DNA of 40,000 nt from an uncultured Chloroflexia bacterium (lineage in GTDB: Bacteria; Chloroflexota; Anaerolineae; Anaerolineales; UBA11858). Numbering within the stretch: the stretch's first letter is position 1; each line of letters begins with the position of its first letter. The stretch lies in contig CAVQTT010000024.1 of the NCBI GenBank assembly GCA_963716695.1, positions 311,562 to 351,561 on the forward strand, in the 5' to 3' direction. The notes below the pieces were generated by a model that worked only from the letters and a program-made list of their open reading frames with translations, was not told the DNA's origin and searched no databases. Made by a program: the position numbers and the translations under genes. Positions 1 through 36,079 of the stretch are shown here, one piece after another.

Positions 1-15
1 GAGCGGGGGTTAGGT
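1..15 (-). repeat. attC site, partial (only the R''-side end GAGCGGGG-GTTAGGT is inside the window)
   Basis: Plus strand 1-15 'gagcgggggttaggt' is identical to the right end of the other attC sites (e.g. 14600-14614). Confidence 0.8.
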
Positions 16-623
16 GCGGTTTGTTCGTTCTTTTCTTGGAGTTCGCTGATTGCTTTAAATCCAGGCCACATGAATACGATAAAGAAAACCCGAACGATTA
101 CACCAGAAGTCACGCCAGAAATCAAAGACAAGATTGTTTCTAATCCATATAAACCTATAGCAATACCCAATGCGATTTTAGATTTCCTTTGGACAATATA
201 GGCCAGTAAGAGATATATACTACCCACAACCACAGAGTATGTCCCCATGCCCAAATTAATCAAGAATTCGATTTGGAACAGTACCGCAATAATTCCCAGT
301 ACTAAATTGAAGCCACCAATAAAATATAAAAGGCCATAAGTTTGTTTTAGCTTTGTTCCGGGATCTGAACCTGAACCTGGCACAGGTTCTCCATCTCGTA
401 ATATTTGTAACGTTGTAGATGACCAAGTTCGCACAAGTTTTATCTCAAGGTTAGATCCATCGGGTAAATTAAAAGTCTTGCCTTGGAACAACTCTTTTTG
501 GCCAAGTATTGTTCCAATTTTTGATCCATCCAGTTCAACAGTGAAGTCCTTCCAAAATGATTTCCATGAAATGGTTAATCGCTCTTCCCCACCTTGAATA
601 AATGGATATGTTTTTTTTGGCAT
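1..623 (-). CDS. Cassette 15: membrane protein of unknown function, 3' partial (runs through the attC R'' box and off the window)
   Basis: Hand translation from ATG at 623-621 gives MPKKTYPFIQGGEERLTISWKSFWKDFTVELDGSKIG..., a soluble N-terminal ~95 aa followed by about 4 hydrophobic helices. The frame stays open to base 1. It is not in the ORF track because no stop lies inside the window. Confidence 0.65.
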   Translation of the reverse strand, partial: MPKKTYPFIQGGEERLTISWKSFWKDFTVELDGSKIGTILGQKELFQGKTFNLPDGSNLEIKLVRTWSSTTLQILRDGEPVPGSGSDPGTKLKQTYGLLYFIGGFNLVLGIIAVLFQIEFLINLGMGTYSVVVGSIYLLLAYIVQRKSKIALGIAIGLYGLETILSLISGVTSGVIVRVFFIVFMWPGFKAISELQEKNEQTAPNPR

Positions 624-675
624 TGTTATCTCCAAATACTTAGTAATTGTTAATCTATGTTGATCTTTTATCTGC

Positions 676-817
676 GCCTACCGGATGAGCTTCGCAATGC
701 ATCTACCCTGCGGGTAAAGGGCACCTGCAGCCAGATGTTCTTCCCGGTCCTCCGTCTCCCGTCTCCGGTCGTTCGCGCAGCGAACCAAACCGGCTATCGG
801 GTGGAGCGGGGTTAGCC
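676..817 (-). repeat. attC site (142 bp) closing cassette 14; slightly degenerate boxes (GCCTACC / GTTAGCC)
   Basis: gcctaccggatgagcttcgc ... ctatcgggtggagcggggttagcc. The central part shares ccggtcgttcgcgNagcgaac with the attC at 4490-4603. Confidence 0.75.
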
Positions 818-827
818 TGGGACTTTA

Positions 828-1199
828 TCAAACCTTTATATAGTTGACATTTTCCAGGCCATCAAAATCTGAGTCTTGAGTCCAAAGTATTGCATCATAT
901 TCCCGGGCGGTGGCTAGCATAATGCTGTCTGCTATAGGAATTTTTAGGTCAGCAGATATCCGTGCTGCGTGTAAGGCAATCGGGCTCGATAAATCAATGA
1001 GTTTCCCTGATTGCATAAATGCTATCGCATTTAATGCCTCGGTTTCATCAAGCTGTTGAAGGATCCGTTTGAAAACCTCATATAAACTTATTGTGGGTAC
1101 AATCAGGGAATCCGTATCCTCTATTGGCTCTGAGAAGAAGGTGGCGTTAGTTCCATTGGCAAAGTATTCCAGCCATCCGGATGAATCAACTATGTTCAT
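828..1199 (-). CDS. vapC: Cassette 14: PIN-domain toxin VapC
   Basis: 123 aa. The start MNIVDSSGWLEYF and the pattern of acidic residues (D5, E41-region, D-S-I, D-S-D) fit a PIN fold. It overlaps the upstream antitoxin ORF by 4 nt. Confidence 0.85.
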   Translation of the reverse strand: MNIVDSSGWLEYFANGTNATFFSEPIEDTDSLIVPTISLYEVFKRILQQLDETEALNAIAFMQSGKLIDLSSPIALHAARISADLKIPIADSIMLATAREYDAILWTQDSDFDGLENVNYIKV

Positions 1200-1402
1200 A
1201 ACCGATCCGATTCTCGTTCAATTTTGGTGTCAATTCCCTTCAAGAATCCCCTGCTTTCTTGAATTTTCCGGACTGGAATCAATTCGATTCTTCCCATATA
1301 GGGAATGACCTGGACCTTCTGCCCAGGCTTGATTCCAGCCTTGTCCCTAACTTTCTTTGGAATGACAACTTGATATTTTGATGATATAGTCGCTTGTTCC
1401 AT
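1196..1402 (-). CDS. vapB: Cassette 14: AbrB/SpoVT-family antitoxin (VapB-like)
   Basis: 68 aa. SSKYQVVIPKKVRDKAGIKPGQKV is a swapped-hairpin AbrB/SpoVT motif. The gene is translationally coupled to vapC. Confidence 0.8.
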   Translation of the reverse strand: MEQATISSKYQVVIPKKVRDKAGIKPGQKVQVIPYMGRIELIPVRKIQESRGFLKGIDTKIERESDRL

Positions 1403-1479
1403 ACGAAACTCCTATCGATATAAAAAACGTATTACTTGTGATTATACCAATAAGATTGGATTTGAGAATGTAGGAATCA

Positions 1480-1544
1480 GGCTAACAGATTGAGCTCACT
1501 TGCCCTGAGCGGAGACGAAGGGTCGGGTGGAGCGCGGGATAGGA
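1480..1544 (-). repeat. attC site (65 bp, shortest in array) closing cassette 13; degenerate R'' (GATAGGA)
   Basis: ggctaacagattgagctcacttgccc ... gggtcgggtggagcgcgggatagga. Confidence 0.65.
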
Positions 1545-1548
1545 CCGT

Positions 1549-2076
1549 CTAATCACGAATATTCGATCTATTGTTAATTGAATACTTCCAGTATTGAATT
1601 CCATTCATATTGATTTCATCAGAAAATTGCATTCCAATTTTCTCAGAAACACGCTTAGACGCCTCGTTTCCAACCCGGATAAGCGAGATTAAGGATGGGA
1701 GTTTGAGGTTATTAAATGCGTAATCACGAACGGCCAATGCGGCCTCAGTCGCATATCCTTGATTCCAGTAATCACTTCGAAAATCATAGCCAAGTTCGGT
1801 TGCCAACTCTCCACCCACTTCCATATGTTCAAGACCACAATCCCCGATTAGGAGATCATTTAATTTGTGTATGACTGCGAAAAGCCCATACCCATAAGTA
1901 CCTTGATGTGCAAGATTCCCGCGGATCCACTGCTCCATTTGTTCGCTACTGAAGGGTGAAGAATTGAAGGAAGCCATAACAATCGGGTCCCCGAATATTT
2001 CCAAGAGACCATCCACATCTGATGAGTCCATCAGGCGAAGGTGCAACCTGGGTGTTTCAAGGTGTAATTTGTCCAT
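1549..2076 (-). CDS. Cassette 13: GNAT family N-acetyltransferase (RimJ/RimL-like, Acetyltransf_3 type)
   Basis: 175 aa. LETPRLHLRLMDSSDVDGL is a typical N-terminus, and YWNQGYATEAALAVRDYAF ... NEASKRVSEKIGM is an acetyl-CoA-binding core pattern. Confidence 0.85.
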   Translation of the reverse strand: MDKLHLETPRLHLRLMDSSDVDGLLEIFGDPIVMASFNSSPFSSEQMEQWIRGNLAHQGTYGYGLFAVIHKLNDLLIGDCGLEHMEVGGELATELGYDFRSDYWNQGYATEAALAVRDYAFNNLKLPSLISLIRVGNEASKRVSEKIGMQFSDEINMNGIQYWKYSINNRSNIRD

Positions 2077-2113
2077 AAGTTTTATGTTTTCTCCGGAATT
2101 GGATTATTTTACG

Positions 2114-2239
2114 TCCTAACGGATGAGCTCGCCCGCCCGGTGAAAACGACCCTTAACCTGGCTAGCAAGGCATTTTGGCCGGACCTCATGCAGGCGGGAG
2201 GGCAGCGACAGCCGGGTCAGGGTTAACGTGGGGTTGGGT
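2114..2239 (-). repeat. attC site (126 bp) closing cassette 12
   Basis: tcctaacggatgagctcgcccgcccgg ... gccgggtcagggttaacgtggggttgggt. Confidence 0.75.
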
Positions 2240-2251
2240 GGCATTTTAATC

Positions 2252-3313
2252 TTACGGCAATGAAAATGGCCTCTCTGGCGAATAGATGCTATCAAAGAAA
2301 CCCATGTATGGGATATCCTCTTCAATGCACTTGATTTTGTAATTTAACCCGGCTTGAATTTCTTCACTTGGATCATCAAGATACTGCGCATAATGCAAGA
2401 ATTCTTCGATTTGGATTATTTTGATAAAAAGGGGTAATTTTGCTAACCATTCATCAGGCAACAAATTCTCGCGATTATATCCTGCCATTACTTGATCCAT
2501 GTAACGATCCATAAAGGATTTTCGGTCTTCCAGACTACGAAACATAACTCTGCCTATCCCGCCTTCCCAAGCAGATGCCAACTCATACACAAACCAGAAA
2601 TAACATGAGTTATCAAAATCAAAAACAGTTATTTCCCCATTAGTGTAGTCAACTGTGAAATTACCATCGTTGAAATCTCCATGAATTAGCCCAAATGAAT
2701 CTTTATCCTTTGGGAGAGACCTGAGTTCTTCTAGCGTGGATTGAATTCGTTGACCAACAACTTGCAACTGCTTCGGTAATCGGCCCAAAATAGCGAATCT
2801 ATTCTTGTGCAATTCAAACCACTCTGGTCGCCGAACTTGGTCGTTGGAGGGGCGATAGCTTTTGGTAACATAGTGCATTTGACCCAATATTTGCCCCCAG
2901 TTCTGAAAATATTCTTCAATTGGCGCATCTGTTCGGTAACGATACCCGTTATCCGGTACTCGCATTCCTTTTCCTTTGACAAAAGATGTAATACGAAATT
3001 CTATTCCTTTCACTTGAATTATTTCAACCTGATTCCCATTTCGAGAGGTTACTGGTTTGGATACTCGAACATCATGATCCGCCAAGTATTCCACAAAATC
3101 TAATTCGGCTCGAATTTGATCTGCGGTTCTATCGGGAGTAAATGACAATCTTAGAATGAAAGGCTTTCCGCTAATTCCATATTCGTAGACAAGGTTTGCA
3201 GCACCTTCATATTCTGCAAATACTTTCAAATTCTCCTGCCGAGTTTTAAAAAGCTTGGCCGATTTTTCAAGGACTTCACTTTTACAGATTTCAATTACTT
3301 TTTCTCTTTTCAT
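2252..3313 (-). CDS. Cassette 12: phosphotransferase-family kinase (APH / homoserine-kinase-II-like fold)
   Basis: 353 aa. The Brenner-type catalytic loop LIHGDFNDGNF and the Mg-binding VFDFDNS are diagnostic of the aminoglycoside-phosphotransferase/choline-kinase superfamily. Confidence 0.8.
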   Translation of the reverse strand: MKREKVIEICKSEVLEKSAKLFKTRQENLKVFAEYEGAANLVYEYGISGKPFILRLSFTPDRTADQIRAELDFVEYLADHDVRVSKPVTSRNGNQVEIIQVKGIEFRITSFVKGKGMRVPDNGYRYRTDAPIEEYFQNWGQILGQMHYVTKSYRPSNDQVRRPEWFELHKNRFAILGRLPKQLQVVGQRIQSTLEELRSLPKDKDSFGLIHGDFNDGNFTVDYTNGEITVFDFDNSCYFWFVYELASAWEGGIGRVMFRSLEDRKSFMDRYMDQVMAGYNRENLLPDEWLAKLPLFIKIIQIEEFLHYAQYLDDPSEEIQAGLNYKIKCIEEDIPYMGFFDSIYSPERPFSLP

Positions 3314-3351
3314 ACCTTTCCTTTGTATTATCCCTATAACTACTCTATGCC

Positions 3352-3517
3352 ACCCAACTTAGTAGCTCACCCGCCCGGTTTGCTAAAGAGCAAGTTGTAA
3401 AAAGTAAGCTGATTTGATTATTGCCTGCTGCTGTTATTCGTCGGGAAGTTAGGATACTTACTAATTACTAAACTTCTATTACTGTGCCGAAGGCACCGGG
3501 TCGGGTGGGGGTTAGGT
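3352..3517 (-). repeat. attC site (166 bp, longest in array) closing cassette 11
   Basis: acccaacttagtagctcacccgcccgg ... caccgggtcgggtgggggttaggt. The stop codon of ORF 3512-4051 lies in the R'' box. Confidence 0.75.
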
Positions 3518-4051
3518 ATTTTTAATAAGATTGTGTTTAATGTTATCGAATTCATCCAACTTGCCTTCCAGTTTTGACCATTCTTGAAGTTCAACAAGAT
3601 TTACCTTGTGTTTGGAGGCAACTAGAATAGCTTGTTTGAGACATTGGCGGTCACCCCAATGATAAAAGTGAGCAAGCCGATCTTTTACGCAATCTGTTGG
3701 AGAGATTATTCGTAATGTGCCCGTATCAAATTCCATCTCATTAATTTCTTTTACTTTTCCCCCGCCAAATTGAAGTGGTCCGGGTGGAAATTCGATAGTA
3801 TGATCCGTGGCAGGGTGTTGAAAATGACGACCAATCGGGGAAAAGCCTAACTCTTTCATTGCTTTTTCGATTTTATCTCGAATAGCAAAATGGGCATTTA
3901 CGAAATCAATATCACCTGATACATATTCTCCATTGGTATAAATCCCAACAGCTGCACCACCTGAAAGAACAACAAACAAACCTGAATCTTTGAGATGTTG
4001 ATCCACATATGCAGCTAGCTGAGCTTGACTCATTTTATCGATTGATTTCAT
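3512..4051 (-). CDS. Cassette 11: nucleotidyltransferase-fold protein of unknown function
   Basis: 179 aa. VVLSGGAAVGIYTNGEYVSGDIDFV resembles the G[GS]...DxD signature of pol-beta-type NTases. It overlaps the upstream wHTH ORF by 4 nt (ATGA). Confidence 0.6.
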   Translation of the reverse strand: MKSIDKMSQAQLAAYVDQHLKDSGLFVVLSGGAAVGIYTNGEYVSGDIDFVNAHFAIRDKIEKAMKELGFSPIGRHFQHPATDHTIEFPPGPLQFGGGKVKEINEMEFDTGTLRIISPTDCVKDRLAHFYHWGDRQCLKQAILVASKHKVNLVELQEWSKLEGKLDEFDNIKHNLIKNT

Positions 4052-4380
4052 TCGGGTTTGCCGTGACGACGTGGACGCCGTCTGTTCATAAGTAGTCTCT
4101 CTTGCAGATCTTCTGGGTAAAAGGAGATTGCCTTATTCAACAATGATTTTAATTCTTTCAATAAGGCATACCTGGGATTAAATCGATATAAAATTGTTCT
4201 ACCAACTTTTTTACTTACTATTACACCGCCCACCTCAAGTTTTTCTAATTGATCTTGAATTGGGAAGAGATCTGTTTCAAAAAACCGAGCAATTTCACGC
4301 GCATATCCCTCGTCTCGAGCCTGAAGAAAGATAAGTACTCGTTCACGATTAGACGATCCAACAATTGGTTCGAGCAACAT
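4048..4380 (-). CDS. Cassette 11: small winged-helix DNA-binding protein
   Basis: 110 aa. SNRERVLIFLQARDEGYAREIARFFETDLFPIQDQLEKLEVGGVIVSKKVGRTILYRFN shows an ArsR/MarR-like wHTH pattern, followed by the basic tail NRRRPRRHGKPE. Confidence 0.6.
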   Translation of the reverse strand: MLLEPIVGSSNRERVLIFLQARDEGYAREIARFFETDLFPIQDQLEKLEVGGVIVSKKVGRTILYRFNPRYALLKELKSLLNKAISFYPEDLQERLLMNRRRPRRHGKPE

Positions 4381-4489
4381 TAAAACAACGTCCTTTCCGA
4401 CCTATAAAATAAGTCATATGACCTATTATATGGTCCGTATGACTTATTTTATACATCAAAGAACTTATGTTGTCAATACTATGAATAAT

Positions 4490-4603
4490 ACCTAACGGAT
4501 GAGCTCACCCACAGTCGGCTTTTTTATACCGGTCTTCCGTCCCCGGTCTCTTTTTCCCGGTCGTTCGCGAAGCGAACAATACCAGCTGTCGGGTGGCTTA
4601 ATT
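4490..4603 (-). repeat. attC site (114 bp) closing cassette 10; degenerate R'' (CTTAATT)
   Basis: acctaacggatgagctcacccacagtcgg ... accagctgtcgggtggcttaatt. Confidence 0.65.
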
Positions 4604-4646
4604 GCTTATGCGCTTTGGAGTGTGCGCGAACTTGTCTACAGAATTA

Positions 4647-5126
4647 TTAATGATGATCCATTGAAAATCGTTGTCTTGCTATCAGCATTTCCCCTGCCAA
4701 CATGGCGACGGACACTACGCCATAGAGCCCGGCGCCCCATAAAATCAGTGCCCCCCGGTGCGCGTACCAGATTCCGAAGAACCAAAGGAGCGAGTAAATA
4801 GCAGCAAATCCCCATGCTGTCAGGTGACAGAACAACAGCCACCGACGATTTCCAATCAGGAGGAGAAGCAGTGTGCTGAGAATTGGTAGCACTGGCGGAA
4901 GACCGAGTAACCATAACGAACTTTGGCCTGAAGCGACATCTTCCACAAATGCCCTGAAAGTAATCAGGCATGCGCAGTAACCATTGCCCAACCAGACAAG
5001 AGGAGGAGAGCAGGTCTCATCTGTAGCTGGGTGGCTGTCGGCAAACCAGGGCCCCATCGATGATACCAGCAGTAACACTAGAGATACCACTCGGCCCACA
5101 TTCATTAGTTTGCTGATATGTAACAT
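4647..5126 (-). CDS. Cassette 10, distal gene: integral membrane protein of unknown function
   Basis: 159 aa with about 4-5 hydrophobic helices and an ATG start. It is the longest coherent frame among three overlapping ORFs here. Confidence 0.55.
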   Translation of the reverse strand: MLHISKLMNVGRVVSLVLLLVSSMGPWFADSHPATDETCSPPLVWLGNGYCACLITFRAFVEDVASGQSSLWLLGLPPVLPILSTLLLLLIGNRRWLLFCHLTAWGFAAIYSLLWFFGIWYAHRGALILWGAGLYGVVSVAMLAGEMLIARQRFSMDHH

Positions 5127-5183
5127 AATCCCTCTTATCTCCCGGGACTATCATTCACGCAATGACGCCTTGTCATTTCGTGG

Positions 5184-5816
5184 CTAGTTTACTTTTCCCA
5201 GCATTCCGAAAGCCAACCAAATCAACCCTGCGCTCATCAGCGTGACACCCAGCGATCGTGGATAGACCTGATACTTTCCAAACATCGACCCTAAACCAAA
5301 TGTCGGTGCTCCGATAGCGATCAAATATCCAGCCACTTGCGGAAGCACGCTCGCTTGTACGATTCCGATCCCAACCAGAATGTACCCGATGCTATATATC
5401 AGTCCAGAAACAATGAAAAATGGAAGAAAAGCCTTGCTTGAATAAATAGGTCCTTGAAAATCAAGTAATGAGCTTTCATGTTCCACCAGGATTGGCCATA
5501 ATACGGTCTCCCATGTCATCGTTCCGATAAGTAAAGTCGTTCCGGTAACTGCGATATAAAAGCCAATGGATGCATACAGGTTAGAATTCGCCATCTGATA
5601 AACATAGATTCCTGCTTGCCCCAAGAGCCCACTCAAAGCGCCAAGGATTCCCAGGGTGTTTATCCATGTCCAATTGCGGTTTTTGACCAGGATCGAAAGT
5701 GTTGTTGATAACTCCCTGTATGGGAGGAAGATGGCGAACGAATACCAATAGATTAGCAGCACAACTCCCGCAACCATGTTTAGGTATCCGCTGATATTGA
5801 TAAAATCAATTCCCAT
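5184..5816 (-). CDS. Cassette 10, proximal gene: polytopic membrane protein of unknown function
   Basis: 210 aa with about 6 predicted TM helices. I recognise no motif. Confidence 0.65.
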   Translation of the reverse strand: MGIDFINISGYLNMVAGVVLLIYWYSFAIFLPYRELSTTLSILVKNRNWTWINTLGILGALSGLLGQAGIYVYQMANSNLYASIGFYIAVTGTTLLIGTMTWETVLWPILVEHESSLLDFQGPIYSSKAFLPFFIVSGLIYSIGYILVGIGIVQASVLPQVAGYLIAIGAPTFGLGSMFGKYQVYPRSLGVTLMSAGLIWLAFGMLGKVN

Positions 5817-5861
5817 ACTGATTTATGACCTCCAAACCGCATTTTAAGGATAATAATGGCG

Positions 5862-5960
5862 TCCTAACGTAAAAGCTCACCCGCAGCCGGATCCTTTTTT
5901 CGATCTTCCGTCCTCCGTCCCCGGTCCGCCGTAGACGCTCAGGTGGAGCTTGGGTTAGGC
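5862..5960 (-). repeat. attC site (99 bp) closing cassette 9
   Basis: tcctaacgtaaaagctcacccgcagccgg ... gctcaggtggagcttgggttaggc. Its central ~62 nt are nearly identical to the attC at 10155-10270. Confidence 0.85.
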
Positions 5961-5995
5961 ACCACAATCCGAAACCTATATTCCCAGTACCCCAT

Positions 5996-7096
5996 CTATT
6001 TAATCTTCATTCCAATTAACCAACGAGTAATCTTCCAACGTCGCACCAGTTCGTATGCCAATAACGTCGAGCCAGTTGCGATTAGAACGATCAAGGGATA
6101 TTTGACAATCACCGGCGCATCAATTCTGATCACGAAGAATCCGACCAATACTGTGAAGGTCATGTGCAGTAAATAAAACGGCATTGCCGCTTCGTTGGCA
6201 TATAGCAACAGGCTGTTGCCGCGGTTTAGAAACCGATGCCCAAGCCCAAGCGCAGCCAGCGTTAATGTCCAGCGTCCCATTTCATAGAGCAAACCATGAG
6301 CAATCCAGGTAGGCTTCCATTCCGGGAAATCGTAAATTATTGTTATCTGGATCACTGCAGCGAATATACCAATTGCCAGGACGCCCCAAGTCATTTTATC
6401 TATGGCTTGCTGAAATCGCGCATCGCTGGGAATGAGAAATCCATAGCTGAAAACAAGAAAGTAATAGATCGGATTCTTGTCTCCGAGAATATTCATCGCC
6501 GCGGCAAGTATCAGCGGAACACCAAACAGGAGCAGAGTTAAAGGAGGAGGTATCGCCTTTCCTAGATTATTAATCGCATTTTTGCCCCTCTCGGAACGCA
6601 TTGCTAGAAAGATGGGTAAACCGATCAAAGAAAAGGCAAATAGATAGAGGATGAACCACAGATGTGCTGGAGTAAATGTCCCATTCATTCCGTCTAAGTG
6701 TGCAAAGTCCAGCTGAAAGAATCCCAGATATGCTTCTGGCAGTGAGGTGGTCTTGCTGTGTTGGATGTAGGTTGTCAGTGGAATATAAGTCAGAATGCCA
6801 AAGATGAGCGGAACAAACAAGCGCAGGAAACGTTCACGAATATATTGCCTTACCGAGCGGAAGCCAAGCGCGAAATAGGTGGCACTTCCTGAAACGAAAA
6901 ACAACATAGGCATGTGCCACATATGAATGAACCCCGCCATCCTGGTTAGTGCGCGGCTGTTGATTGTATCCTTGACATACATGATGGAATTTGGATCTAG
7001 AATAAAGATCTGTGCCGCGTGGAAGGGAACTAGCACGAGTACACCCAGTACGCGCAACCAATCAATATCATGGCGTCGTTGGGAAACTTTTTTCAT
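5996..7096 (-). CDS. Cassette 9: acyltransferase family 3 (OafA/OpgC-like) membrane protein
   Basis: 366 aa. The N-terminal RRHDIDWLRVLGVLVLVPFHAA motif and about 10 TM helices are typical of Acyl_transf_3. Confidence 0.85.
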   Translation of the reverse strand: MKKVSQRRHDIDWLRVLGVLVLVPFHAAQIFILDPNSIMYVKDTINSRALTRMAGFIHMWHMPMLFFVSGSATYFALGFRSVRQYIRERFLRLFVPLIFGILTYIPLTTYIQHSKTTSLPEAYLGFFQLDFAHLDGMNGTFTPAHLWFILYLFAFSLIGLPIFLAMRSERGKNAINNLGKAIPPPLTLLLFGVPLILAAAMNILGDKNPIYYFLVFSYGFLIPSDARFQQAIDKMTWGVLAIGIFAAVIQITIIYDFPEWKPTWIAHGLLYEMGRWTLTLAALGLGHRFLNRGNSLLLYANEAAMPFYLLHMTFTVLVGFFVIRIDAPVIVKYPLIVLIATGSTLLAYELVRRWKITRWLIGMKIK

Positions 7097-7130
7097 AGTT
7101 ATCCATATCCATAGTTATATAGAAGTAGGT

Positions 7131-7217
7131 GCCTAACGGAAGAGCTCAGCTATTTATTCAGTTCTAGTTTCCTTGACCTCCGTGCGTCCCAGGCGTCCGC
7201 TGGAGCGGGGGTTAGGC
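7131..7217 (-). repeat. attC site (87 bp) closing cassette 8
   Basis: gcctaacggaagagctcagc ... cgtccgctggagcgggggttaggc, with canonical boxes at both ends. Confidence 0.85.
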
Positions 7218-7233
7218 CGACACACAAGCCAGA

Positions 7234-8166: not shown

Positions 8167-8207
8167 ATCAGGCCCTCCTATAATATATTTCCAGATTATT
8201 ATATTCA

Positions 8208-8331: not shown

Positions 8332-8414
8332 GACAACATTATCAACATTCATCAGTTGAATGGGAGAAATTGAAATATGTATCTGCCATCAGATTATTGG
8401 TTGCTAGCATTCAT

Positions 8415-10151: not shown

Positions 10152-10154
10152 GGC

Positions 10155-10270
10155 GCATAACGGATTAAGCTCACCCGCAGCCGGATCCTTTTTTCGGTCT
10201 TCCGTCCTCCGTCCCCGGTCCGCCGCAGGCGCTCATCCTGAACGAAGCCGAAGGAGAGCGGGGGTTAGTT
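10155..10270 (-). repeat. attC site (116 bp) closing cassette 6; boxes GCATAAC / GTTAGTT
   Basis: gcataacggattaagctcacccgcagccgg ... gaaggagagcgggggttagtt. The mazF stop codon lies in the R'' box. Confidence 0.8.
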
Positions 10271-10603
10271 TGAGATAATCTCGTTTAACCCTTCCACAAT
10301 GATTTCCAATTCTTCGGAGTCAACCTGGCCAACCTTATTGTCAAGACGCGAGGTGGATATTGTCCTTACTTGGCTGATCTTGACCCACGACTTTTTTTGT
10401 AGATCCCCGCTTTTCAGTTCATGGGTTAAAGGAAAACCAGCTCTGGGCGGCTGGCTTGAAATAGCCATGGCGATAACTGTGCCAGACTTATTATTGAAAA
10501 CATCATGACTGATAATCACAACTGGCCGAACACCAGCTTGTTCATGGCCTTTTGTAGGATTCAGATCAGCCCAGTAGATGTCCCCTCTTAATATTCTGGC
10601 CAT
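10265..10603 (-). CDS. mazF: Cassette 6: MazF/PemK-family endoribonuclease toxin
   Basis: 112 aa. RGDIYWADLNPTKGHEQAGVRPVVIIS is the canonical PemK/MazF N-terminal motif. It overlaps the upstream antitoxin by 16 nt. Confidence 0.88.
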   Translation of the reverse strand: MARILRGDIYWADLNPTKGHEQAGVRPVVIISHDVFNNKSGTVIAMAISSQPPRAGFPLTHELKSGDLQKKSWVKISQVRTISTSRLDNKVGQVDSEELEIIVEGLNEIISN

Positions 10604-10839
10604 TCAGATAAATCTCCTAAGAGACCTTCATCTGCCAGAGCTTGTTCATAAGCAGGATCAAGTTTTGCAGATTCCTCAGCTAATCTTGACTTTTCCACTT
10701 TGACCATGCGTTCAATAACAGCGTCTTCAACTGCTCTGCTCCGGCTGGGATATTTTCCTTCGGAAACCATGCGATCCAATTTCACTATAAGATCCTTTTC
10801 CATTGTGACCGCTACTTTTTGCTTTGGCATGTTTATCAC
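10588..10839 (-). CDS. mazE: Cassette 6: ribbon-helix-helix (CopG-like) antitoxin
   Basis: 83 aa. KVAVTMEKDLIVKLDRMVSEGKYPSRSRAVEDAV shows an RHH pattern, with the acidic C-terminal tail typical of antitoxins. The start may be M5 (10827). Confidence 0.75.
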   Translation of the reverse strand: MINMPKQKVAVTMEKDLIVKLDRMVSEGKYPSRSRAVEDAVIERMVKVEKSRLAEESAKLDPAYEQALADEGLLGDLSEWPEY

Positions 10840-10896
10840 CTCTAGTATGACATTCTATCATACCTCTGACCAGAATTGTCAAATGAATTTATCGAA

Positions 10897-10983
10897 AACT
10901 AACGGATGAGCTCACCCGCCTAAGATAATTTGATTATACTTGCGCCGCCGCCTCATCAGGGTCGGGTGGAGGTTGGGTTAGGC
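10897..10983 (-). repeat. attC site (87 bp) closing cassette 5
   Basis: aactaacggatgagctcacccgcc ... cagggtcgggtggaggttgggttaggc. Confidence 0.85.
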
Positions 10984-10986
10984 GCA

Positions 10987-11796
10987 TTATTTACTCCAAA
11001 AAAGATAAAACAAGATTGCCTGTGGGCCATAATTCATGATGCCATGCAATATAGCAGGTGCAATTATGCTTTCACTTTTTTCACGCACAAACCCTAAGAT
11101 CAGCCCAGCAAACATGGTCCAGAGAACATGCGGCCATTCTGGCGCACCAGATTTCCAGCCTAAATGCCAAAGACCAAAAAGCACAGATGAGATAACCAAT
11201 CCTAATCCCCAACTAACCCCAAAGAATCGATTGGGGCGATCAAATACTGAATTCAGGCGAGACTGGATATATCCGCGAAATAGAATCTCTTCACTTAAGG
11301 CAACAAACAAGTAGAAATAGATGATAGCAACAATGGCGCTCGCAAACTTAGACGAGATTTGAGATCCAACTGGAAAGAGCAAAAAGCTGCTTATGACTCC
11401 AATATTCTGCCATGATGGTTTGTGTCTAACCATCCATGCAAACCAGAAAAGCAATCCAATTTCGACGATGGAGATCAGAGTTGCTCCAACCCAATGGGTC
11501 CAATCAATCCTACTGAGAAGAACACCAAGAACGAAAAATGGGAAGAAGCCATAAGCGGTTATATCTAATTGATAGTGGAGTTTCTGGGAAAAAGGGCTCT
11601 GGTGCTGCCTCTGAGTCCTGAAAATGTAAAGGCAGAAGGAAGTAATCAATAGAGCTGCATATCCTGGAAAAAGAAAACCGTTAATGGAGTTGGTTATCTT
11701 CATTGCCAGCGGAATTGAATTGACAAACCTGAAAAGGCAAATCATCACGATGAAGACAATGCTGACTTCAATTATGATTAGTATTTTTGCCTTCAT
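10987..11796 (-). CDS. Cassette 5: second CPBP/Abi-family intramembrane endopeptidase
   Basis: Motifs EEILFRGYIQSRL, FGLWHLGW and PAILHGIMN. ATG 11796 (MKAKILII...) is preferred over the upstream TTG at 11835. Confidence 0.82.
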   Translation of the reverse strand: MKAKILIIIEVSIVFIVMICLFRFVNSIPLAMKITNSINGFLFPGYAALLITSFCLYIFRTQRQHQSPFSQKLHYQLDITAYGFFPFFVLGVLLSRIDWTHWVGATLISIVEIGLLFWFAWMVRHKPSWQNIGVISSFLLFPVGSQISSKFASAIVAIIYFYLFVALSEEILFRGYIQSRLNSVFDRPNRFFGVSWGLGLVISSVLFGLWHLGWKSGAPEWPHVLWTMFAGLILGFVREKSESIIAPAILHGIMNYGPQAILFYLFWSK

Positions 11797-11845
11797 ACCG
11801 GCAACCTTTTCAACATTGAGAAGTTTGATTATCAAAACACCATGC

Positions 11846-11969
11846 GCCTAACGGTTTGCGTTACCCGCCGCCGGGGTTAACAAGGCGACAAAATCATAAT
11901 AGCATGAACCTCTGCAAAGTTACTGTGCGTACCTCCGGCGTAGGCAGTCGGGTGCACGCGTTGTTAGGC
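11846..11969 (-). repeat. attC site (124 bp) closing cassette 4
   Basis: gcctaacggtttgcgttacccgccgccgg ... ggcagtcgggtgcacgcgttgttaggc. The hydrolase stop codon lies in the R'' box. Confidence 0.8.
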
Positions 11970-12785
11970 AGAGTGATGAATGAATTTCTCTACCAAATCG
12001 TTGAAAAGCTCAGGTCTTTCAAAATTCATAGCATGGCGCGCTGCGAGGACAATCCTGGCTTCGGCGTGCGGGACATTGCGCAGAATCTCCTTTGTATGAC
12101 GAAAAGAATTCTTTGGCTCAAGCTCTCCATTCAATATCATTGTAGGGCAGGTTATTCTCTCTAACGGTAGCGTATTGAAGCCATAGATAGCATTCCATAT
12201 CTTCAAATACTCGTTGCTATTCATCCGAAGCATACATTGCTCGAGATACTCTTTGGCCGCTTTGTCTTGACTCAACCAATGCTTTCCTCGAGTGAGGCGG
12301 GCTAACAAAAAGGAGAAGCGAGTGAAACTCTTAACGTTCATCGTTTTGATCGTCAGCTCCATAGCCCATTTTGGGAACAGGACGTCACAAAATAACTTAT
12401 CTAATAAGGTCAATCTTATTGAGACAGCAGTGGACGCAAGCACCATTGCTTTGAGACGTTCTGGATAAAGTACAGCAAATGCTTGGGCGATACTTCCGCC
12501 CCACGATAAACCGCAAATAATTGGTAAGCGAATATCCAATGCATCAAGCAGGGAACAAAGATCATTATTATAAGTATCCATGGAATACCTGCTTAGATCA
12601 GACCCCCCCGTTTTCCCGTGGCCGCGCAGGTCATAGCGTAAAAGCCGATATTTGGATGAAAAATATTCCCATTGAGGTTCCCAAATACGAGAATTGGCAA
12701 ATGCACCATGAATAAACACCAGTGAAGAACCTTCCCCTATTTGTTCATAATAGTGCTCCAAGCCATTTATTTGAATTTTTGGCAT
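11964..12785 (-). CDS. Cassette 4: alpha/beta-fold hydrolase
   Basis: 273 aa. It has the oxyanion region LVFIHGAF, the nucleophile elbow GLSWGGS (GxSxG) and a C-terminal His region AARHAMNFE. Confidence 0.85.
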   Translation of the reverse strand: MPKIQINGLEHYYEQIGEGSSLVFIHGAFANSRIWEPQWEYFSSKYRLLRYDLRGHGKTGGSDLSRYSMDTYNNDLCSLLDALDIRLPIICGLSWGGSIAQAFAVLYPERLKAMVLASTAVSIRLTLLDKLFCDVLFPKWAMELTIKTMNVKSFTRFSFLLARLTRGKHWLSQDKAAKEYLEQCMLRMNSNEYLKIWNAIYGFNTLPLERITCPTMILNGELEPKNSFRHTKEILRNVPHAEARIVLAARHAMNFERPELFNDLVEKFIHHSA

Positions 12786-12802
12786 TTGTATAGATTCACT
12801 CT

Positions 12803-12932
12803 GCCTAACGGATGAGCTTCGCGAAGCATGCTGAGCACAGCGAAGCTCACCTGCAGCCGGGTCTTGGTTTGTAGGATCCTTTATCCCAGGCCATCCACCT
12901 TAACCAGCTGTCGGGTGGAGCGTGGGTTAGGT
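12803..12932 (-). repeat. attC site (130 bp) closing cassette 3; carries an extra inner hairpin (gagcttcgcgaagc...gcgaagctcac)
   Basis: gcctaacggatgagcttcgcgaagc ... ccaccttaaccagctgtcgggtggagcgtgggttaggt. Its right half closely matches the attC at 14515-14614. Confidence 0.85.
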
Positions 12933-12935
12933 GGA

Positions 12936-13256
12936 CTATTTAGCTAATTTACTATATGCAAATCCAAGAGCAGAACCCAAAATCAGAGTCATTATCAAAA
13001 TCGGTATTAATGAAATTGGGTCTTCCCAACCAATGATGGGCAAACTTGGCAACAAACACAAGAAAGAAATAACTACACCCTTGAGAATAGGTGAGAGTTG
13101 AAGGTTAGAGGTTGCAAGGACAAAACCTGAGACAACCCAAAGAAGGAAGGCAGATAGGTTAGCATCCCAGGTCAAGCCTTGAATTACCATAGGTATCAGG
13201 TCGATGATGCCTGCTCCAATCCCAAATAAGATTCCAATCCGAATATTTTTCTTCAT
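12936..13256 (-). CDS. Cassette 3: small 4-TM membrane protein of unknown function
   Basis: The start is moved to ATG 13256 (MKKNIRIGILFGIGAG...) because the track start 13343 lies inside the attC. 106 aa, almost entirely hydrophobic. Confidence 0.65.
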   Translation of the reverse strand: MKKNIRIGILFGIGAGIIDLIPMVIQGLTWDANLSAFLLWVVSGFVLATSNLQLSPILKGVVISFLCLLPSLPIIGWEDPISLIPILIMTLILGSALGFAYSKLAK

Positions 13257-13313
13257 AGAACGTTCCTTTTTCCGAGAAGGAATATTGCTTATGTTTTTGT
13301 TCCACCTAACGGA

Positions 13314-13432
13314 ATAGCTCAGGCGCAGCGGCGGTGACTGCAAGATACCTTCCCATCATCGCGCCATTTCGTGCAATTCGCGCACCGTACCCATAGGGGC
13401 GGAGCCGCTGTCGCCTGGAGCCTGGGTTGGGC
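13314..13432 (-). repeat. attC site (119 bp) closing cassette 2; R'' GTTGGGC
   Basis: acctaacggaatagctcaggcgcagcggcgg ... ccgctgtcgcctggagcctgggttgggc. Confidence 0.8.
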
Positions 13433-13500
13433 GGCCTTTACCAAGAACTAACAATTATCTATTTTACGGACAAGAGATTTCTTCCAAACAGAAACCATCA

Positions 13501-14493
13501 TCAATGGACAACACCCCCCCAGGAAGGCCAGAGATCCCCAACCTGGTTATTCGTTAGCTGAAATGGATTGAAACCATCATTGCCCTCGAGAGCTTCTTCA
13601 ACGTTAATCGCGTAGATCTCGAAATCCCCGTCATTGCTCGATTGATAGACAATCCAATTTCCATCCGGAGACCAGGTTGGATTCTCAGCGTTACCTTGAT
13701 AAGTTAGGCGTCGCTCATTGCTGCCATCTGCATCCATAATATATATCGCTCGATCCTCAAGGACTGCAAATGCAATCCGGAGACCATCTGGCGACCAGTC
13801 AGGGAAATAATCCAATCTGCCATTCTGGGTCAGACGGCGCTGGTTACTCCCATCCGAATCTGCCAGGTAAAGCTCGACATTTCCATCCCGCTGGGAAGCA
13901 AAGACAATTTGTGTTCCATCCGGTGACCAGTCTGCCCAAAACCCACCTTCTATCAATAGCTGCAAGTCGCTGCCATCTGCATTGACAATGTAGATATCTC
14001 CTTGAAGGTCTTTCTCTGTATCGACACTTATGCTTGTGCCGTTTGGGTGCCAATCCGGGTGAAGGGTGGAAAACTCGGTCTCTATCAACTTATGATCCCT
14101 GCCGTCATCAACGTTAATGATGTAGAGTTGGTAAAAACAACTATGGACACAAGCGCCCGAATTCGGATCGTCCCGATCGGAGATGATGGCAATCTGAGAA
14201 CCATCTGGAGACCAGACCGGTGAATATTCATCGCTTTCATTGGAAGTCAAGCGGCGTTGATTGCTTCCGTCCGGATTCATTGTATAGATTTCAATGTTGC
14301 CATCACGATGGGAATAAAAGGCAATCATGCCATTAGCATCGTCACTAACAGGTATCATAACCATGGGAGTGATCGTTTCTGACGGCTGAATTGCGCTAGA
14401 GGGAGTGTCCGCCTGCAATGGGGCATCTACCGCCCGACAAGCAACGCAGATCCCCAAGAGAAGGAACGAGAAGAAATTAGATCTTCTTACCAT
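13501..14493 (-). CDS. Cassette 2: secreted/lipoprotein PD40 (TolB-like) beta-propeller repeat protein
   Basis: 330 aa. It has the signal peptide [19 protein letters not shown] and the repeated blocks DGSNQRRLT ... WSPDG. Confidence 0.85.
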
Positions 14494-14514
14494 AATTCTT
14501 GCCTCCTGTTGGCC

Positions 14515-14614
14515 GCCTAACGGATGAGCTCACCCGCGGCCGGGTCTTGTTTTAATGATCCTTATTCCCAGACCGCCCACCTTAACCGGCTGTCGGGTGG
14601 AGCGGGGGTTAGGT
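14515..14614 (-). repeat. attC site (100 bp) closing cassette 1
   Basis: gcctaacggatgagctcacccgcggccgg ... ccaccttaaccggctgtcgggtggagcgggggttaggt, with canonical boxes at both ends. Confidence 0.9.
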
Positions 14615-16525
14615 GTCAAGTCCTATCCAGCTTTGGACAATACCTGGGTCAATCCAATCAATCACAACTGCATCCTTTGGCAGATCAATCTCCACCGGTT
14701 TCCAATCGTCTACCTTAGAAATACACACGCCGCCAATAGAACCTCCACCCACATCACCAGTGTTGAGGATCGCCCAATCAGCTTCAGGATTCCAAATTAC
14801 ATTGTAATATCCCTCAATGTAATATTTTTCTGTGCCATCTAACCTGATTACGAAAAGTCCACCTTTCCTATTATCAGGATTTATCGCCCTGAACGAAACC
14901 CAATTATTATCTGGACTCCAATCGGGAGCCATCGGTAAGCCTTCACCTTCAACCATCGTATAGGGGTATAGCAATCGGAGAGTGGTGTCTTCAAGATTGT
15001 ATATTCCAATCCCGTTAAGCCACGCTTGATCTGTGTCTATTCCCACACCCCAACCTATATATTTTCCATCTGACGACCAAGATGGGTAATAAAGTTGATA
15101 TTCAAGACCTTGATCAGTATTTATAATACCTGGCGATATCTTTGAAGATCATAGTCCTGTGTAAATAGCTCTCCACCAAATATTGCGGCGGTGGATCTGT
15201 CAGGCGAGATCCTGAAGTGACCGTTATCTTTTTCCTCAGAATAGACAAGGTATTCTGAACCATCAAGATTTATTGAGGTCAAGTAACCTGAGAAGTATGG
15301 AATAAATTCATCATCAGTATTTCTTGACGAGAAAATAAGTTTGTTTTCATTGCCAAACAGCCTTGGCCAACCTTCAATACGATCTTCTGTGTTTGAAAGA
15401 TTGGTCTTTGTTCCTGTTAATATGTCTATAGACCAAATATCTGGACGCCGGATTGAGTCTGAATAAAGATCCGAGTTATAGAAGATAGTTCTGTTATCGA
15501 TTGACCATGTTGCTGAATGTAGGATTTCTGCCCATTCCCTATCAGGATCCCGTATTTTCTGCCACTAGTGATGGCTCCCCTCCATTGACTGAAACCATAT
15601 ATATTGATCCAGCTTGGCTAAACATGATCCATTGTCCATCAGGGTGCCAGGCTAAACCATTAAAGAATTCCAGGTTATCAATTATTAATTGTTCATGTTC
15701 CAACACCACATTAATTATCCACAGCTTGTGGTTAGAATAAACTGCCAAAAGTTCACTCGTAGGTGACCAAGATTTTAAGATATTTGTCGGATGCGAAAAA
15801 GATAAGAATGGTCCCCTAGCCTCGTCTCTACATTTTGAAGGGTTATCTATACAGCTTAAATCACTAATGTATAAACCTTCATTAGGTTCCGGTCCCAAAG
15901 TTGAAAGTGAATCATACCCATATGAGACCATTTCTCCATTTGGAGAAACCAAAGGGTCAAGAGAAAGCATCTACATTTTCCTGGGCGATGATAAAGTTAT
16001 CAAATCGTTTGTCTTGAATATCAAAAATAAATAAACTGTAACTACACTCAAACATCAATCTGTCTCTTGAAGGGAACCAAGAATAATCAAAACAATATTC
16101 CTTCTCAATCAGATACTCTTCTTTACTTCTATCTTGCGTATTGAAAACGATAAGCGTGTTATCAGATAACAACGCGAAGTGTTTGCCATCATCGCTTATT
16201 TCGCCCCATGAATTTCAATGAACATAATACGATTTTCTGACTGGTTTTCCGGTAAAAGATATAAGGATTCATCGGTGTAGTTATAGTAGATAATGCTGTC
16301 TCCGTCAGGTATAGTTGAATAATCAATTATCGTTTCAAAGACATCCCGCGGAGTAGGCGTAACGCTTGGTACATTTTCTGTTAGGTAGATAACAATATTA
16401 GTCGGTGTGGAAATTGGTTCAGAAGTGTATATTGGATCGGGGTCCTCATTTAGGAAAGTTGTCTCAGGCACATCGATTGGGTTAGGCAATTTATAGCAGC
16501 TGCTTACGAATAAAATCATTATCAA
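14609..16525 (-). pseudogene. Cassette 1 (attI-proximal): degraded ~640-codon beta-propeller (PD40/TolB-like) lipoprotein gene
   Basis: Colinear fragments 16525-16196, 16172-15957, 15970-15542 and 15046-14609 lie in different frames. The 15047-15541 gap still translates to propeller-like peptides (e.g. LYYPSWSSDGKYIGWG) across further shifts. An N-terminal lipobox-like IAICLIMILFVSSC has no ATG. Confidence 0.75.
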
Positions 16526-16779
16526 GCAAATAGCAATTACTCTATTTTTCGTTCGATTGAATGACAGATAATCTAGAGAGGACGAAATGTAACGTCGATG
16601 AAAGAGGAATTATCGTGATACACTTCGTTGATGATAGCTGGTCACTAAAGGACCAATACGGAATATATTGTCATTATCGAAAACTTGGAATAATCAGGAA
16701 GATCCGGTAAAACGAGATGTGCTTGACTGTTCTGGTACTGAGTGGCGAGGCATTTAATGATTGTCTCTCTGAATATTTC

Positions 16780-16890
16780 ATCGCTAACACGCGAACGCCA
16801 ATATCGTCGATTAGGAGCGACTCTACCGATGCCAATAAGAGGTAATCATTCCATCGATATATCGGTTATTAAACTTGACAGCTAACGTTA
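16780..16890 (-). promoter_or_regulatory. Candidate attI recombination region (two possible crossover boxes, plus-strand CGCTAAC 16782-16788 and AGCTAAC 16880-16886)
   Basis: Only these two RYYYAAC-like boxes lie between the first cassette ORF and intI. The second sits in the palindrome TTAACGTTAA. The exact attI site cannot be fixed from sequence alone. Confidence 0.35.
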
Positions 16891-16978
16891 ATTATCTCTT
16901 AAATGCGGGATAAACCCTTATCCCTTTACCCGCCAGATGTGGGTAGATAACTGATTATGATGTTATCCTGCCTACCTC

Positions 16979-17008
16979 TTGAACCGGGCGCTTCTCGTCT
17001 GTGATAAT
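16979..17008 (+). promoter_or_regulatory. Putative intI promoter (TTGAAC - 18 nt - TG-n-GATAAT extended -10)
   Basis: The sigma70-like hexamers end 44 nt upstream of the intI ATG. A GGGAGGGGG Shine-Dalgarno lies at 17041-17049. Confidence 0.4.
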
Positions 17009-17052
17009 GGCAGTGTAACATATTCCAGGCGATCTTAACTAGGGAGGGGGAC

Positions 17053-18030
17053 ATGAATGAACCGAAACTTTTGGATCAGGTCAGATCTGTGATCAGGCGC
17101 TTGAATTATTCCTACGCCACTGAAAAAGCCTATACTTCTTGGATCAAACGTTTTATCCTTTTCCACGACAAACGCCATCCCCGCCAAATGGGCGAGGTCG
17201 AGATCGAATCCTTCTTAACCTACCTGGCTGTACATCGGCAGGTAGCCCCCTCGACCCAGAACCAGGCTTTGGCTGCCCTGCAGTTCCTGTATCAGAAGGT
17301 GCTCCATCTTCCATTGGACGAGGGGATCCTGCCAGTGCCGGCCAAACGGTCCAAACATCTGCCTGTGGTGCTCAGTAGATCAGAAGTCAAGTTGGTGCTG
17401 GGCCAGCTTTCGGGAACCTACCGCCTGGTCTGCCAGCTGCTCTACGGCTGCGGACTGCGGGTGACAGAATGCCTCACCCTGCGGATCCAGGACCTGGATC
17501 TGGATCGCTCCGAGATCACCGTTCGCAGCGGCAAGGGCAACAAGGATCGCCGGACGATGCTTCCCGGAACCGTTCAGGATGCCCTGGTTCGTCATCTTGA
17601 ATATGTAAAGGCAGCCCATGAGAAAGCCTTGGCTGAGGGGTACGGGGGCGTGGAGCTGCCGTACGGTTTGGCCCGGAAATACACCGCTGCTGCTGGTGAA
17701 TGGATCTGGCAGTATGTCTTCCCTGCCCACCTGCCTTCCCATGACCCTCGCTCCGGGGTCTTCCGTCGGCATCATCTTCACCCCAGCGGCCTGCGCCGTG
17801 CTGTTCGCTCGGCTGCCCAGAAAGCCGGGATCCAAAAACATGTCACACCGCATATCTTCCGCCACAGCTTTGCCACCCACTTGCTGGAAAGCGGCTATGA
17901 CATCCGCACTGTCCAGGAGCTATTGGGGCATGCCGATCTCAAAACCACCATGATCTACACCCACGTGCTCAACAAAGGCGGCCAAGGCGTGAAAAGCCCG
18001 CTGGATGAGCTTCGGGATAGCAGTATCTGA
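17053..18030 (+). CDS. intI: Integron integrase IntI (tyrosine recombinase)
   Basis: 325 aa. The catalytic residues sit in [10 protein letters not shown] (Arg), [12 protein letters not shown] (His-x-x-Arg), LLGH and MIYTHV (Tyr). The IntI-specific insertion reads [25 protein letters not shown], matching the ALxRKYPxAxxxWxWQWVFP-type additional domain absent from XerC/D. Confidence 0.95.
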
Positions 18031-33515: not shown

Positions 33516-33516
33516 A

Positions 33517-36036: not shown

Positions 36037-36079
36037 ATTTATTCTAGGGAGATCCTGCCGGCAAGACATGGCCTCTATT

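Follow-up and report, generated by a model that had tools for sequence, protein, structure and literature searches.

Does the 40,000-nucleotide stretch analysed here (the window: contig CAVQTT010000024.1 of an uncultured Chloroflexia bacterium, assembly GCA_963716695.1, positions 311,562 to 351,561 of the forward strand) hold a complete integron, with an integrase gene (intI), an attI site and an array of cassettes bounded by attC sites, and does such an element belong to the sedentary chromosomal type or to the mobile one? We consider it very probable that the window carries a complete integron of the sedentary chromosomal type at a fixed chromosomal site of an uncultured Chloroflexota bacterium. 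All of the components can be read in the letters: an open intI, an attI and 15 attC-bounded, co-oriented cassettes, which bears out the first-pass annotation of this stretch, where a complete integron with at least 15 cassettes had been described from the sequence. All sizeable open reading frames (ORFs) between 1 and 16525 lie on the minus strand, so that intI is divergent from a co-oriented array as had been described, and the G+C fraction is ~0.44 in the array versus ~0.52 in the core genes beyond intI. The reading is carried by the family of the recombinase and its catalytic and DNA-contact residues, by the strand polarity of the attC sites, and by a second species (locus L001, on the Chloroflexota metagenome-assembled genome (MAG) contig CAVOGS010000012.1, 'uncultured Chloroflexia bacterium MFD09964.bin.2.149') that has the same locus with completely different cassettes.

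The recombinase

17053-18030, plus strand: intI, integron integrase, an uninterrupted ORF of 325 residues, assigned with NCBIfam and a structure alignment

The predicted product of this ORF is IntI and not a Xer recombinase, because it matches the NCBIfam family TIGR02249 'integron integrase' with 443.6 bits (cutoff 265) over profile positions 1-315 of 315, because a structure-based alignment gives it an insertion of ~38 residues relative to Xer proteins, and because its scores against the Xer families are far under their respective cutoffs (XerC 162 and XerD 155 bits, with XerC, XerD and XerA spanning 155-185). In Pfam it is made up of Phage_int_SAM_4 and Phage_integrase. The top solved structure is the Vibrio cholerae integrase VchIntIA (PDB 2A3V, E 1.9e-86), which aligns continuously over query residues 7-319; XerA covers the protein only at 22-181 and 238-306, where ~56 query residues are skipped versus ~18 in XerA, and the XerC and XerD alignments are likewise separate stretches that leave region 182-237 uncovered. 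The integron-specific extra domain, which the first-pass annotation had claimed for this protein, is thus found at ~182-237, and the residues that we list for it are K209, Y210, W219, P232, H240 and H241; what stands beside the array is a recombinase that has the insertion, not a Xer-like protein without it.

All of the catalytic residues are present (R136, K161, H267, R270, H293 and Y302). In VchIntIA, the extrahelical T of a folded attC is contacted by P232, H240 and H241 and the extrahelical G by Q145, W157, K209, Y210 and W219 (PMC3053210). IntI keeps seven of these eight contact residues (Q146, K209, Y210, W219, P232, H240 and H241), and the eighth, W157 in VchIntIA, is R158 in IntI, the equivalent of R168 in IntI1. 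The protein is 54% identical to IntI1 and scores 350 bits against the equivalog PRK15417, under its cutoff of 435; the sole plasmid-borne IntI that is closer than IntI1 is on one cyanobacterial plasmid (57.6%).

The attC sites

The cassettes are given below from attI outward, each with the attC site at its end on the same strand.

14521-16885, minus strand: cassette 1 (attI-proximal), 2365 bp, G+C ~0.39, with a broken lipoprotein/PD40-type beta-propeller gene; attC a15 at 14515-14614 (100 nt, canonical, R box 7/7, L box plus stem 9/9, T-N6-G, 93.5 bits with the covariance model R1 described below)
13310-14520, minus strand: cassette 2, ORF 13501-14493 (330 residues), PD40 beta-propeller; attC a14 at 13304-13432 (129 nt, canonical, with compensatory changes)
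12809-13309, minus strand: cassette 3, small ORF within 12936-13343, no Pfam match; attC a13 at 12803-12932 (130 nt, canonical boxes plus a 29-nt hairpin insertion after GCT of L')
11852-12808, minus strand: cassette 4, ORF 11964-12785 (273 residues), alpha/beta hydrolase; attC a12 at 11846-11969 (124 nt, canonical)
10903-11851, minus strand: cassette 5, ORF 10987-11835 (282 residues), Rce1-like CAAX protease; attC a11 at 10897-10983 (87 nt)
10161-10902, minus strand: cassette 6, two ORFs, a MazF/PemK toxin (10265-10603) and an upstream 83-residue partner, the antitoxin (10588-10839); attC a10 at 10155-10270 (116 nt, ~17-nt insertion in the 3' arm)
8214-10160, minus strand: cassette 7, ORF 8415-10151 (578 residues), partial aldehyde-dehydrogenase match; attC a09 at 8208-8331 (124 nt, canonical, covarying L box GCTT/AAGC)
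7137-8213, minus strand: cassette 8, ORF 7234-8208 (324 residues), Rce1-like CAAX protease; attC a08 at 7131-7217 (87 nt)
5868-7136, minus strand: cassette 9, ORF 5996-7096 (366 residues), Acyl_transf_3; attC a07 at 5862-5960 (99 nt)
4496-5867, minus strand: cassette 10, two ORFs, 5184-5816 (210 residues) and 4647-5126 (159 residues), no Pfam match; attC a06 at 4490 to ~4612 (lacking R'' and part of L'')
3358-4495, minus strand: cassette 11, two ORFs, 4048-4380 (110 residues, winged-helix-turn-helix-like) and 3512-4051 (179 residues), no Pfam match; attC a05 at 3352-3517 (166 nt, GAGC of L'' gone)
2120-3357, minus strand: cassette 12, ORF 2252-3313 (353 residues), APH phosphotransferase family; attC a04 at 2114-2239 (126 nt, 3' L box/stem not complementary)
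1486-2119, minus strand: cassette 13, ORF 1549-2076 (175 residues), GNAT acetyltransferase; attC a03 at 1480-1544 (65 nt, R'' GTT changed to GAT)
682-1485, minus strand: cassette 14, two ORFs, a MazE-type antitoxin (1196-1402) and a PIN toxin (828-1199); attC a02 at 676-817 (142 nt, R' AAC changed to ACC, 30-nt insertion in the L' arm)
1-681, minus strand: cassette 15 (incomplete), ORF from 623 and still open at base 3 (at least 207 residues), membrane-type, no Pfam match; attC at 1-15 (GAGCGGGGGTTAGGT), the L''/R'' end, cut by the window edge

The window therefore starts inside an attC, and the array reaches its edge, as had been noted. The window has 21 copies of GTTAGGY versus 4.7 expected, nearly all within the first 16.5 kb, and the arm consensus sequences quoted in the first-pass annotation are real, as repeat finding recovers them (GCCTAACGGATGAGCTCACCCG and CGGGTGGAGCGGGGGTTAGGY). 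When the plus strand of a well-preserved site is folded as single-stranded DNA, it forms a paired R box CCTAAC/GTTAGG (RYYYAAC/GTTRRRY), an unpaired spacer of 6 versus 4 nt and then, further inward, a paired L box GCT/AGC, a bulged G or C, a 6-bp stem, a bulged T, a further stem and a variable loop. The two bulges belong to the 3' arm of the plus strand and follow one another as T-N6-G. In the bottom strand of attC, the T is the first and the G the second extrahelical base, and their optimal spacing is six nucleotides (PMC3053210); because order and polarity are the same here, the plus strand is the bottom strand and the cassettes belong to the minus strand, which agrees with the orientation of the ORFs and with the location of intI and attI at the high-coordinate end. 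Across the 14 complete sites, 86% of the cells of the pairing scheme are paired, compared with 28-51% after a shift of the partners by 1-3 columns, and compensatory double changes occur in four pairs, for example ACCCG/CGGGT to AGGCG/CGCCT in a09 and a14.

A covariance model built from the 14 complete sites (R1) and run on the window with filters off returned exactly these sites, on the plus strand only and at 36-94 bits, with the next best score at 12 bits. Together with the one cut by the window start this makes 15 attC sites, one fewer than the 16 first reported. R1 found no attC in the 22 kb of core genome and none inside the body of cassette 1. Every site sits exactly at the end of an ORF, often providing its stop codon, and the polarity is the same in 14 of 14. 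In a rule-based scan that used the class 1 register, six hits had ≥14/16 pairs, all of them true sites on the plus strand and none on the minus strand, versus 1.9 per strand in shuffled sequence, and three hits versus 0.2 expected had ≥15 pairs; a first, looser version was too permissive (7 hits versus 5.4 expected).

For a cross-check, R1 was run on 80 loci fetched via IntI homologues (E < 0.01). It gave 31 hits, 29 of which are upstream of IntI on the strand that matches the window; 12 are in L001, and Anaerolineales, Ardenticatena, several cyanobacteria and Burkholderiales are among the hosts. When R1 was run on four class 1 plasmid loci, it ranked the attC of aac(6')-Ib highest, on the expected strand (20 bits, E 0.008), and the remaining class 1 attC sites of these loci scored at noise level. 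Two loci from Acidobacteriota/Thermoanaerobaculia have attC-like hits downstream of IntI on the opposite strand, unlike the other loci (L068 16734-16803 and L047 16850-16926), which may mean that intI is inverted there with respect to the array.

The attI site and a putative intI promoter

16880-16894, minus strand: attI core, TAATTAACG followed by TTAGCT, with the predicted crossover between 16886 and 16885
16979-17008, plus strand: putative intI promoter, TTGAAC-18-GATAAT with a TG extension, from a consensus scan

The upstream flank of intI (~300 bp) was aligned between the window and its four closest genome loci (L001-L004, the last three being Anaerolineales MAGs). The 13-nt motif CTAACGTTAATTA (window 16882-16894), ~170-200 bp upstream of intI, is invariant in all five within a flank that otherwise diverges. 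Its cassette-strand form is TAATTAACGTTAG, and in the five loci conservation ceases straight after GTTAG, which is what would be expected at the junction of attI and the first cassette; from this we infer a crossover between the G and the TT, at 16886/16885. IntI would bind the folded bottom strand of attC, here the plus strand, and recombine it with the double-stranded attI beside its own gene. Crossover of attI with attC at this point of the minus strand would insert cassettes at the head of the array, recombination between two attC sites would excise them, and the cassettes would be read on the minus strand, away from intI.

In the alignment, the -10 of the intI promoter-like site and a downstream AGTrTAnCATAT are conserved in the five related loci. 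The conserved element as a whole, TATAAT..(C/A)AGTrTAnCATAT, directly precedes the intI start codon (16995-17030, and the corresponding positions of L001-L004) and may be the intI promoter with a regulator site. We know of no LexA box that this conserved element matches.

A shared chromosomal locus with different cassettes

Beyond intI the window continues with an AhpC/TSA-family gene, glmS, gatA, a HAD hydrolase, a VIT-VWA protein, an SQR-like flavoprotein (Pyr_redox_2), DsrE, a DUF2089/SHOCT trio and three LysM-M23 paralogues. The neighbours named in the first-pass annotation (the LysM-M23 triplet, GatA, the SQR-like protein and DsrE) are all among them, and the immediate neighbours of intI are the AhpC/TSA-family gene and glmS. 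In L001 the genes downstream of intI are syntenic and in the same order (glmS 76-84%, gatA 87%, HAD hydrolase 59% and VIT-VWA 69% identical), so that the two integrons have in common the chromosomal site (intI, one gene, glmS, gatA, HAD, VIT-VWA), the geometry and the attC family: upstream of the L001 intI there are 12 attC sites that are 82-92% identical to the a13/a15 type of the window, including the variable loop (82-90% for a15 itself). They differ in that L001 has far more uniform attC sites, another gene between intI and glmS, and no cassette in common, as none of the window cassette proteins was matched in L001. A fixed, inherited chromosomal location with lineage-related attC sites is thus found through this single relative, from the synteny of five flanking genes. 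A sedentary integron that is passed on vertically and turns over its cassettes would be expected to look like this, with locus and attC family kept and the cargo changed. Because IntI is intact and the cassettes have been turned over completely relative to L001, we argue that the platform has been active since the two lineages split.

Among species-representative genomes, the nearest IntI relatives are those of L001 (74%), L002-L004 (71-68%) and two more (62-61%). These six best matches are all from Chloroflexota/Anaerolineales MAGs, and lower down cyanobacteria and other phyla are mixed in; the nearest IntI proteins on metagenome contigs are 76% and 75% identical, and the assembly index has no identical IntI protein on record. 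A Chloroflexota host, which had been suspected from the flavour of the neighbouring genes, is therefore supported by the six best IntI matches and by the 87% identity of GatA to that of L001.

The single gene between intI and glmS is of the AhpC/TSA family in the window (18352-19140) and of the radical SAM/SPASM type in L001 (10248-11366), so that this slot is variable although it is outside the cassette array. The glmS of L001 (11457-13266) is split into two overlapping ORFs, probably by an assembly frameshift, and frameshifts in such assemblies need caution.

Variation among the attC sites

The first-pass annotation had regarded the attC sites as unusually homogeneous and had taken this as the hallmark of a sedentary integron. 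The sites of the window do not show high within-array homogeneity: any two of them are on average 56% identical over the full length and 74% in the 22+22-nt arms, their lengths range from 65 to 166 nt, and their arms are 69% identical to those of attC sites from unrelated integrons (cyanobacterial, Burkholderiales and others). By comparison, the 12 sites of L001 have a mean full-length identity of 75% (median 81%, arms 87%), and 10 of the 12 are 100-102 nt long. Since the arms are hardly closer within the array (74%) than to unrelated integrons (69%), the conserved R and L boxes are largely the consensus of the whole IntI clade and not the product of array-specific homogenisation. Homogeneity is thus not a strong argument in this array.

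Only a13 and a15 belong to the 'house' attC type of the lineage that is common to L001. a11 (10897-10983) is 92% identical to an attC in the Anaerolineales MAG locus L029 (33-119), and the arms of a12 (11846-11969) are of the attC family of the Anaerolineales loci L053 and L048, whose IntI proteins are only 53-54% identical to that of the window. These types suggest that the respective cassettes were imported from other integrons and that cassettes are exchanged among Anaerolineales integrons. The variable loop of a07 is 96% identical to that of a10.

Cassette contents

The cassette content, with toxin-antitoxin (TA) pairs, a GNAT acetyltransferase, an APH-family protein, an acyltransferase, hydrolases and proteins without a match, is typical of chromosomal integrons. 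Four units have two ORFs, as had been described (PIN and MazE, 828-1402; 3512-4380; 4647-5816; MazF and antitoxin, 10265-10839), and the two TA cassettes among them, PIN-MazE and MazEF, probably stabilise the array. Cassette 6 has its own operator-like palindrome, GTATGACA..TATCATAC, at ~10845-10865. Its MazF and partner are 67% and 46% identical to a pair at L057 1408-1970, in the part of a Burkholderiales MAG integron that holds the cassette array. The palindrome precedes both pairs and is probably the TA operator, and the resemblance suggests that a MazF TA cassette is common to different phyla.

Cassette 1 is unusually long, and its gene is, as judged from its three-frame translation, a pseudogene: it lies in at least five fragments in different frames (at least four frame changes), with a weak PD40 hit and a weak, distant similarity to the intact PD40 protein of cassette 2. 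When ten cassette proteins were run through PADLOC, the single hit was that of the 110-residue protein of cassette 11 to the candidate defence family PDC-M05A (E 1.4e-10); its 179-residue partner had no match. An exact 50-nt pattern from cassette 15 had no match in metagenome contigs.

Alternative explanations

Several observations weigh against a complete integron of the sedentary type, and each is given here with the explanation that it would favour. The first of these is a fossil integron, in which intI is open and the platform no longer captures or shuffles cassettes, the array being a set of frozen chromosomal genes. We regard this as possible but doubtful. Being next to attI, cassette 1 should be the newest of the array and the one with the strongest expression, but its gene is a pseudogene of low G+C with multiple frameshifts, which argues against recent activity. 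The boxes are fully intact in eight of the 14 complete attC sites and six have lesions (a02, a03, a04, a05, a06 and a10). The damage forms a gradient: all five attI-distal complete sites (a02-a06, 676-4612) are lesioned in R or L boxes, compared with one of the nine proximal ones (5862-14614), which has an insertion (Fisher p = 0.003), and a06 is probably not recombinable. A simple consensus scan, to which Chloroflexota promoters may not conform, detected no sigma-70-like cassette promoter (Pc) on the minus strand near attI; the one promoter-like site that it gave is that of intI on the plus strand. On the other side, IntI has no frameshift or stop and keeps every catalytic residue and seven of the eight contact residues, eight proximal attC sites are canonical, the shared locus and attC type of L001 with its entirely different cassettes require turnover since the split, and the types of a11 and a12 suggest imports. 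The gradient suggests that the distal cassettes are becoming fixed, and the distal lesions, taken with the pseudogene in the first cassette, suggest that the array is old and its distal part frozen. Part of the array is thus probably frozen, and recent activity is uncertain.

The second explanation is a mobile integron, or an integron inside a larger element such as a Tn7-like transposon or an island downstream of glmS, which we hold to be very improbable. The distance from the 3' end of glmS, classically the region where Tn7 attaches, to intI on its downstream side is ~1.2 kb; the slot between intI and glmS is filled by different genes in the window (AhpC/TSA) and in L001 (radical SAM/SPASM); the far end of the array is outside the window; and L002-L004, with IntI proteins 68-71% identical, gave no match to the flanking core genes of the window, leaving L001 as the one syntenic relative found. 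By a published definition, an integron is sedentary when it has more than 19 attC sites or is present in all genomes of a species (PMC4889954). From the window this label cannot be given in the formal sense: 15 attC sites are visible in an array cut by the window edge, and no conspecific genomes were found (nearest IntI 74-76%). Against mobility, however, the 22 kb beyond intI have no transposase, Tns-like or relaxase gene, the locus is common to a species whose IntI is only 74% identical, and IntI is as distant from IntI1 as described above (54%, with 350 of the 435 bits required by PRK15417 and one cyanobacterial plasmid closer, at 57.6%). This divergence, together with core-gene flanks that are free of transposition genes, places the element outside the mobile classes 1-5.

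The remaining objections concern the nature of the repeats. Two further covariance models, from which the variable loop had been removed, did not lift the window attC sites above noise; R2 was built from the arms of four class 1 attC sites and R3 from ten foreign sites (class 1, cyanobacterial, Burkholderiales and other Chloroflexota integrons). As a control, R2 recovered its own parents of 70-81 nt and missed its 112-nt parent, as loop removal prevents the model from spanning sites much longer than ~80 nt, but it also missed the 65-nt and 87-nt sites of the window. The enrichment in the rule-based scan is only moderate at ≥14/16 pairs, and an Rfam scan of the whole window gave no family at gathering score, although Rfam may hold no attC family. 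Nevertheless, the idea that the repeats are other intergenic palindromes (repetitive extragenic palindromic-like elements or terminators) beside a Xer-like recombinase has a negligible chance, as the repeats combine AAC/GTT triplets with the 6/4 spacer, an L box and T-N6-G bulges, all on a single strand and with uniform polarity in 14, each is exactly at an ORF end and none is in the 22-kb core, the recombinase is IntI and not Xer, and R1 finds sites beside IntI genes in many phyla.

Comparison with known integrons

The sedentary chromosomal integron that we favour resembles in plan the V. cholerae superintegron (VchIntIA, with the Vibrio cholerae repeats, VCRs, as attC). Both have an intI divergent from a long, co-oriented chromosomal array with TA cassettes, both have a lineage-specific attC type (in our case that of a13 and a15, the ~100-nt repeat that dominates the L001 array), and, as in sedentary integrons such as that of V. 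cholerae, the locus is conserved between species and the cassettes turn over completely. The two integrases align end to end, and seven of eight extrahelical-base contacts are kept. The differences are the phylum, the number of attC sites (~180 there versus 15 visible in the window), and the state of the array, as the window has heterogeneous attC sites (56%, 65-166 nt), decay at the distal end and a pseudogene in the first cassette. VCRs are highly uniform.

With class 1 integrons the element has in common the architecture and the attC register (7+6+3+6 / 6+1+3+spacer+7), including the bulged G or C followed by a bulged T six nucleotides further in. Class 1 attC sites differ systematically only in their 3' spacer (5 nt versus 4 in the window) and L box (GTT/AAC versus GCT/AGC), attI1 is unrelated to the attI of the window, and the window has no Tn402 or 3' conserved segment (3'-CS) context.

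This is a well-known kind of element and a new example of it in Chloroflexota, which would not surprise a specialist; at least 574 relatives of IntI were found in each public collection searched, and the picture of what integrons are and how they work is unchanged. Chloroflexota are abundant in soils, sediments and wastewater sludge. To our knowledge, no Chloroflexota integrase or attC has been tested experimentally, and integrons of the phylum are known from genome surveys. The description of the lineage as essentially unstudied in integron biology therefore holds for experiments and not for surveys, where Chloroflexi/Chloroflexota have been listed as integron-bearing (PMC4889954, 2016; PMC8618304, 2021); an Anaerolineae MAG is also the host of an integron-associated sul4 gene (PMC12772301). 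The window and L001 between them supply a conserved locus with a defined attI and a 'house' attC type, which could serve as the starting point for recombination assays or for a comparison of cassette turnover in the phylum, and the integron is a promising system for first experiments on recombination of this kind in Chloroflexota.

Additional observations

a02 (676-817) and a13 (12803-12932) have a homologous insertion of 29-30 nt at the same point, after the GCT of the L' arm (GGATGAGCT followed by TCGC...). In a13 the insertion folds as a hairpin of its own (GAGCTTCGC...GCGAAGCTC), so that the bottom strand would be a three-way junction opposite the extrahelical G. The insertion was not found in any of 164 related loci. 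We think it unlikely that the array shows cassette fixation in progress with a02 and a13 as tolerated structural variants of attC; if this were true and IntI still recombined a13, attC recognition would tolerate, or even use, a branched substrate, and we know of no description of such a substrate for integron integrases. A 12-nt match to the insertion-bearing attC arms, GGATGAGCTTCG, at the 3' end of intI (18004-18015) was rejected as a coincidence; it lies in the codons for PLDELR at the C terminus of IntI, and none of the 164 loci has it.

Tandem paralogues occur twice in the core region, as three DUF2089/SHOCT-domain genes (31675-33903) and as three LysM-peptidase M23 genes (34564-39164).

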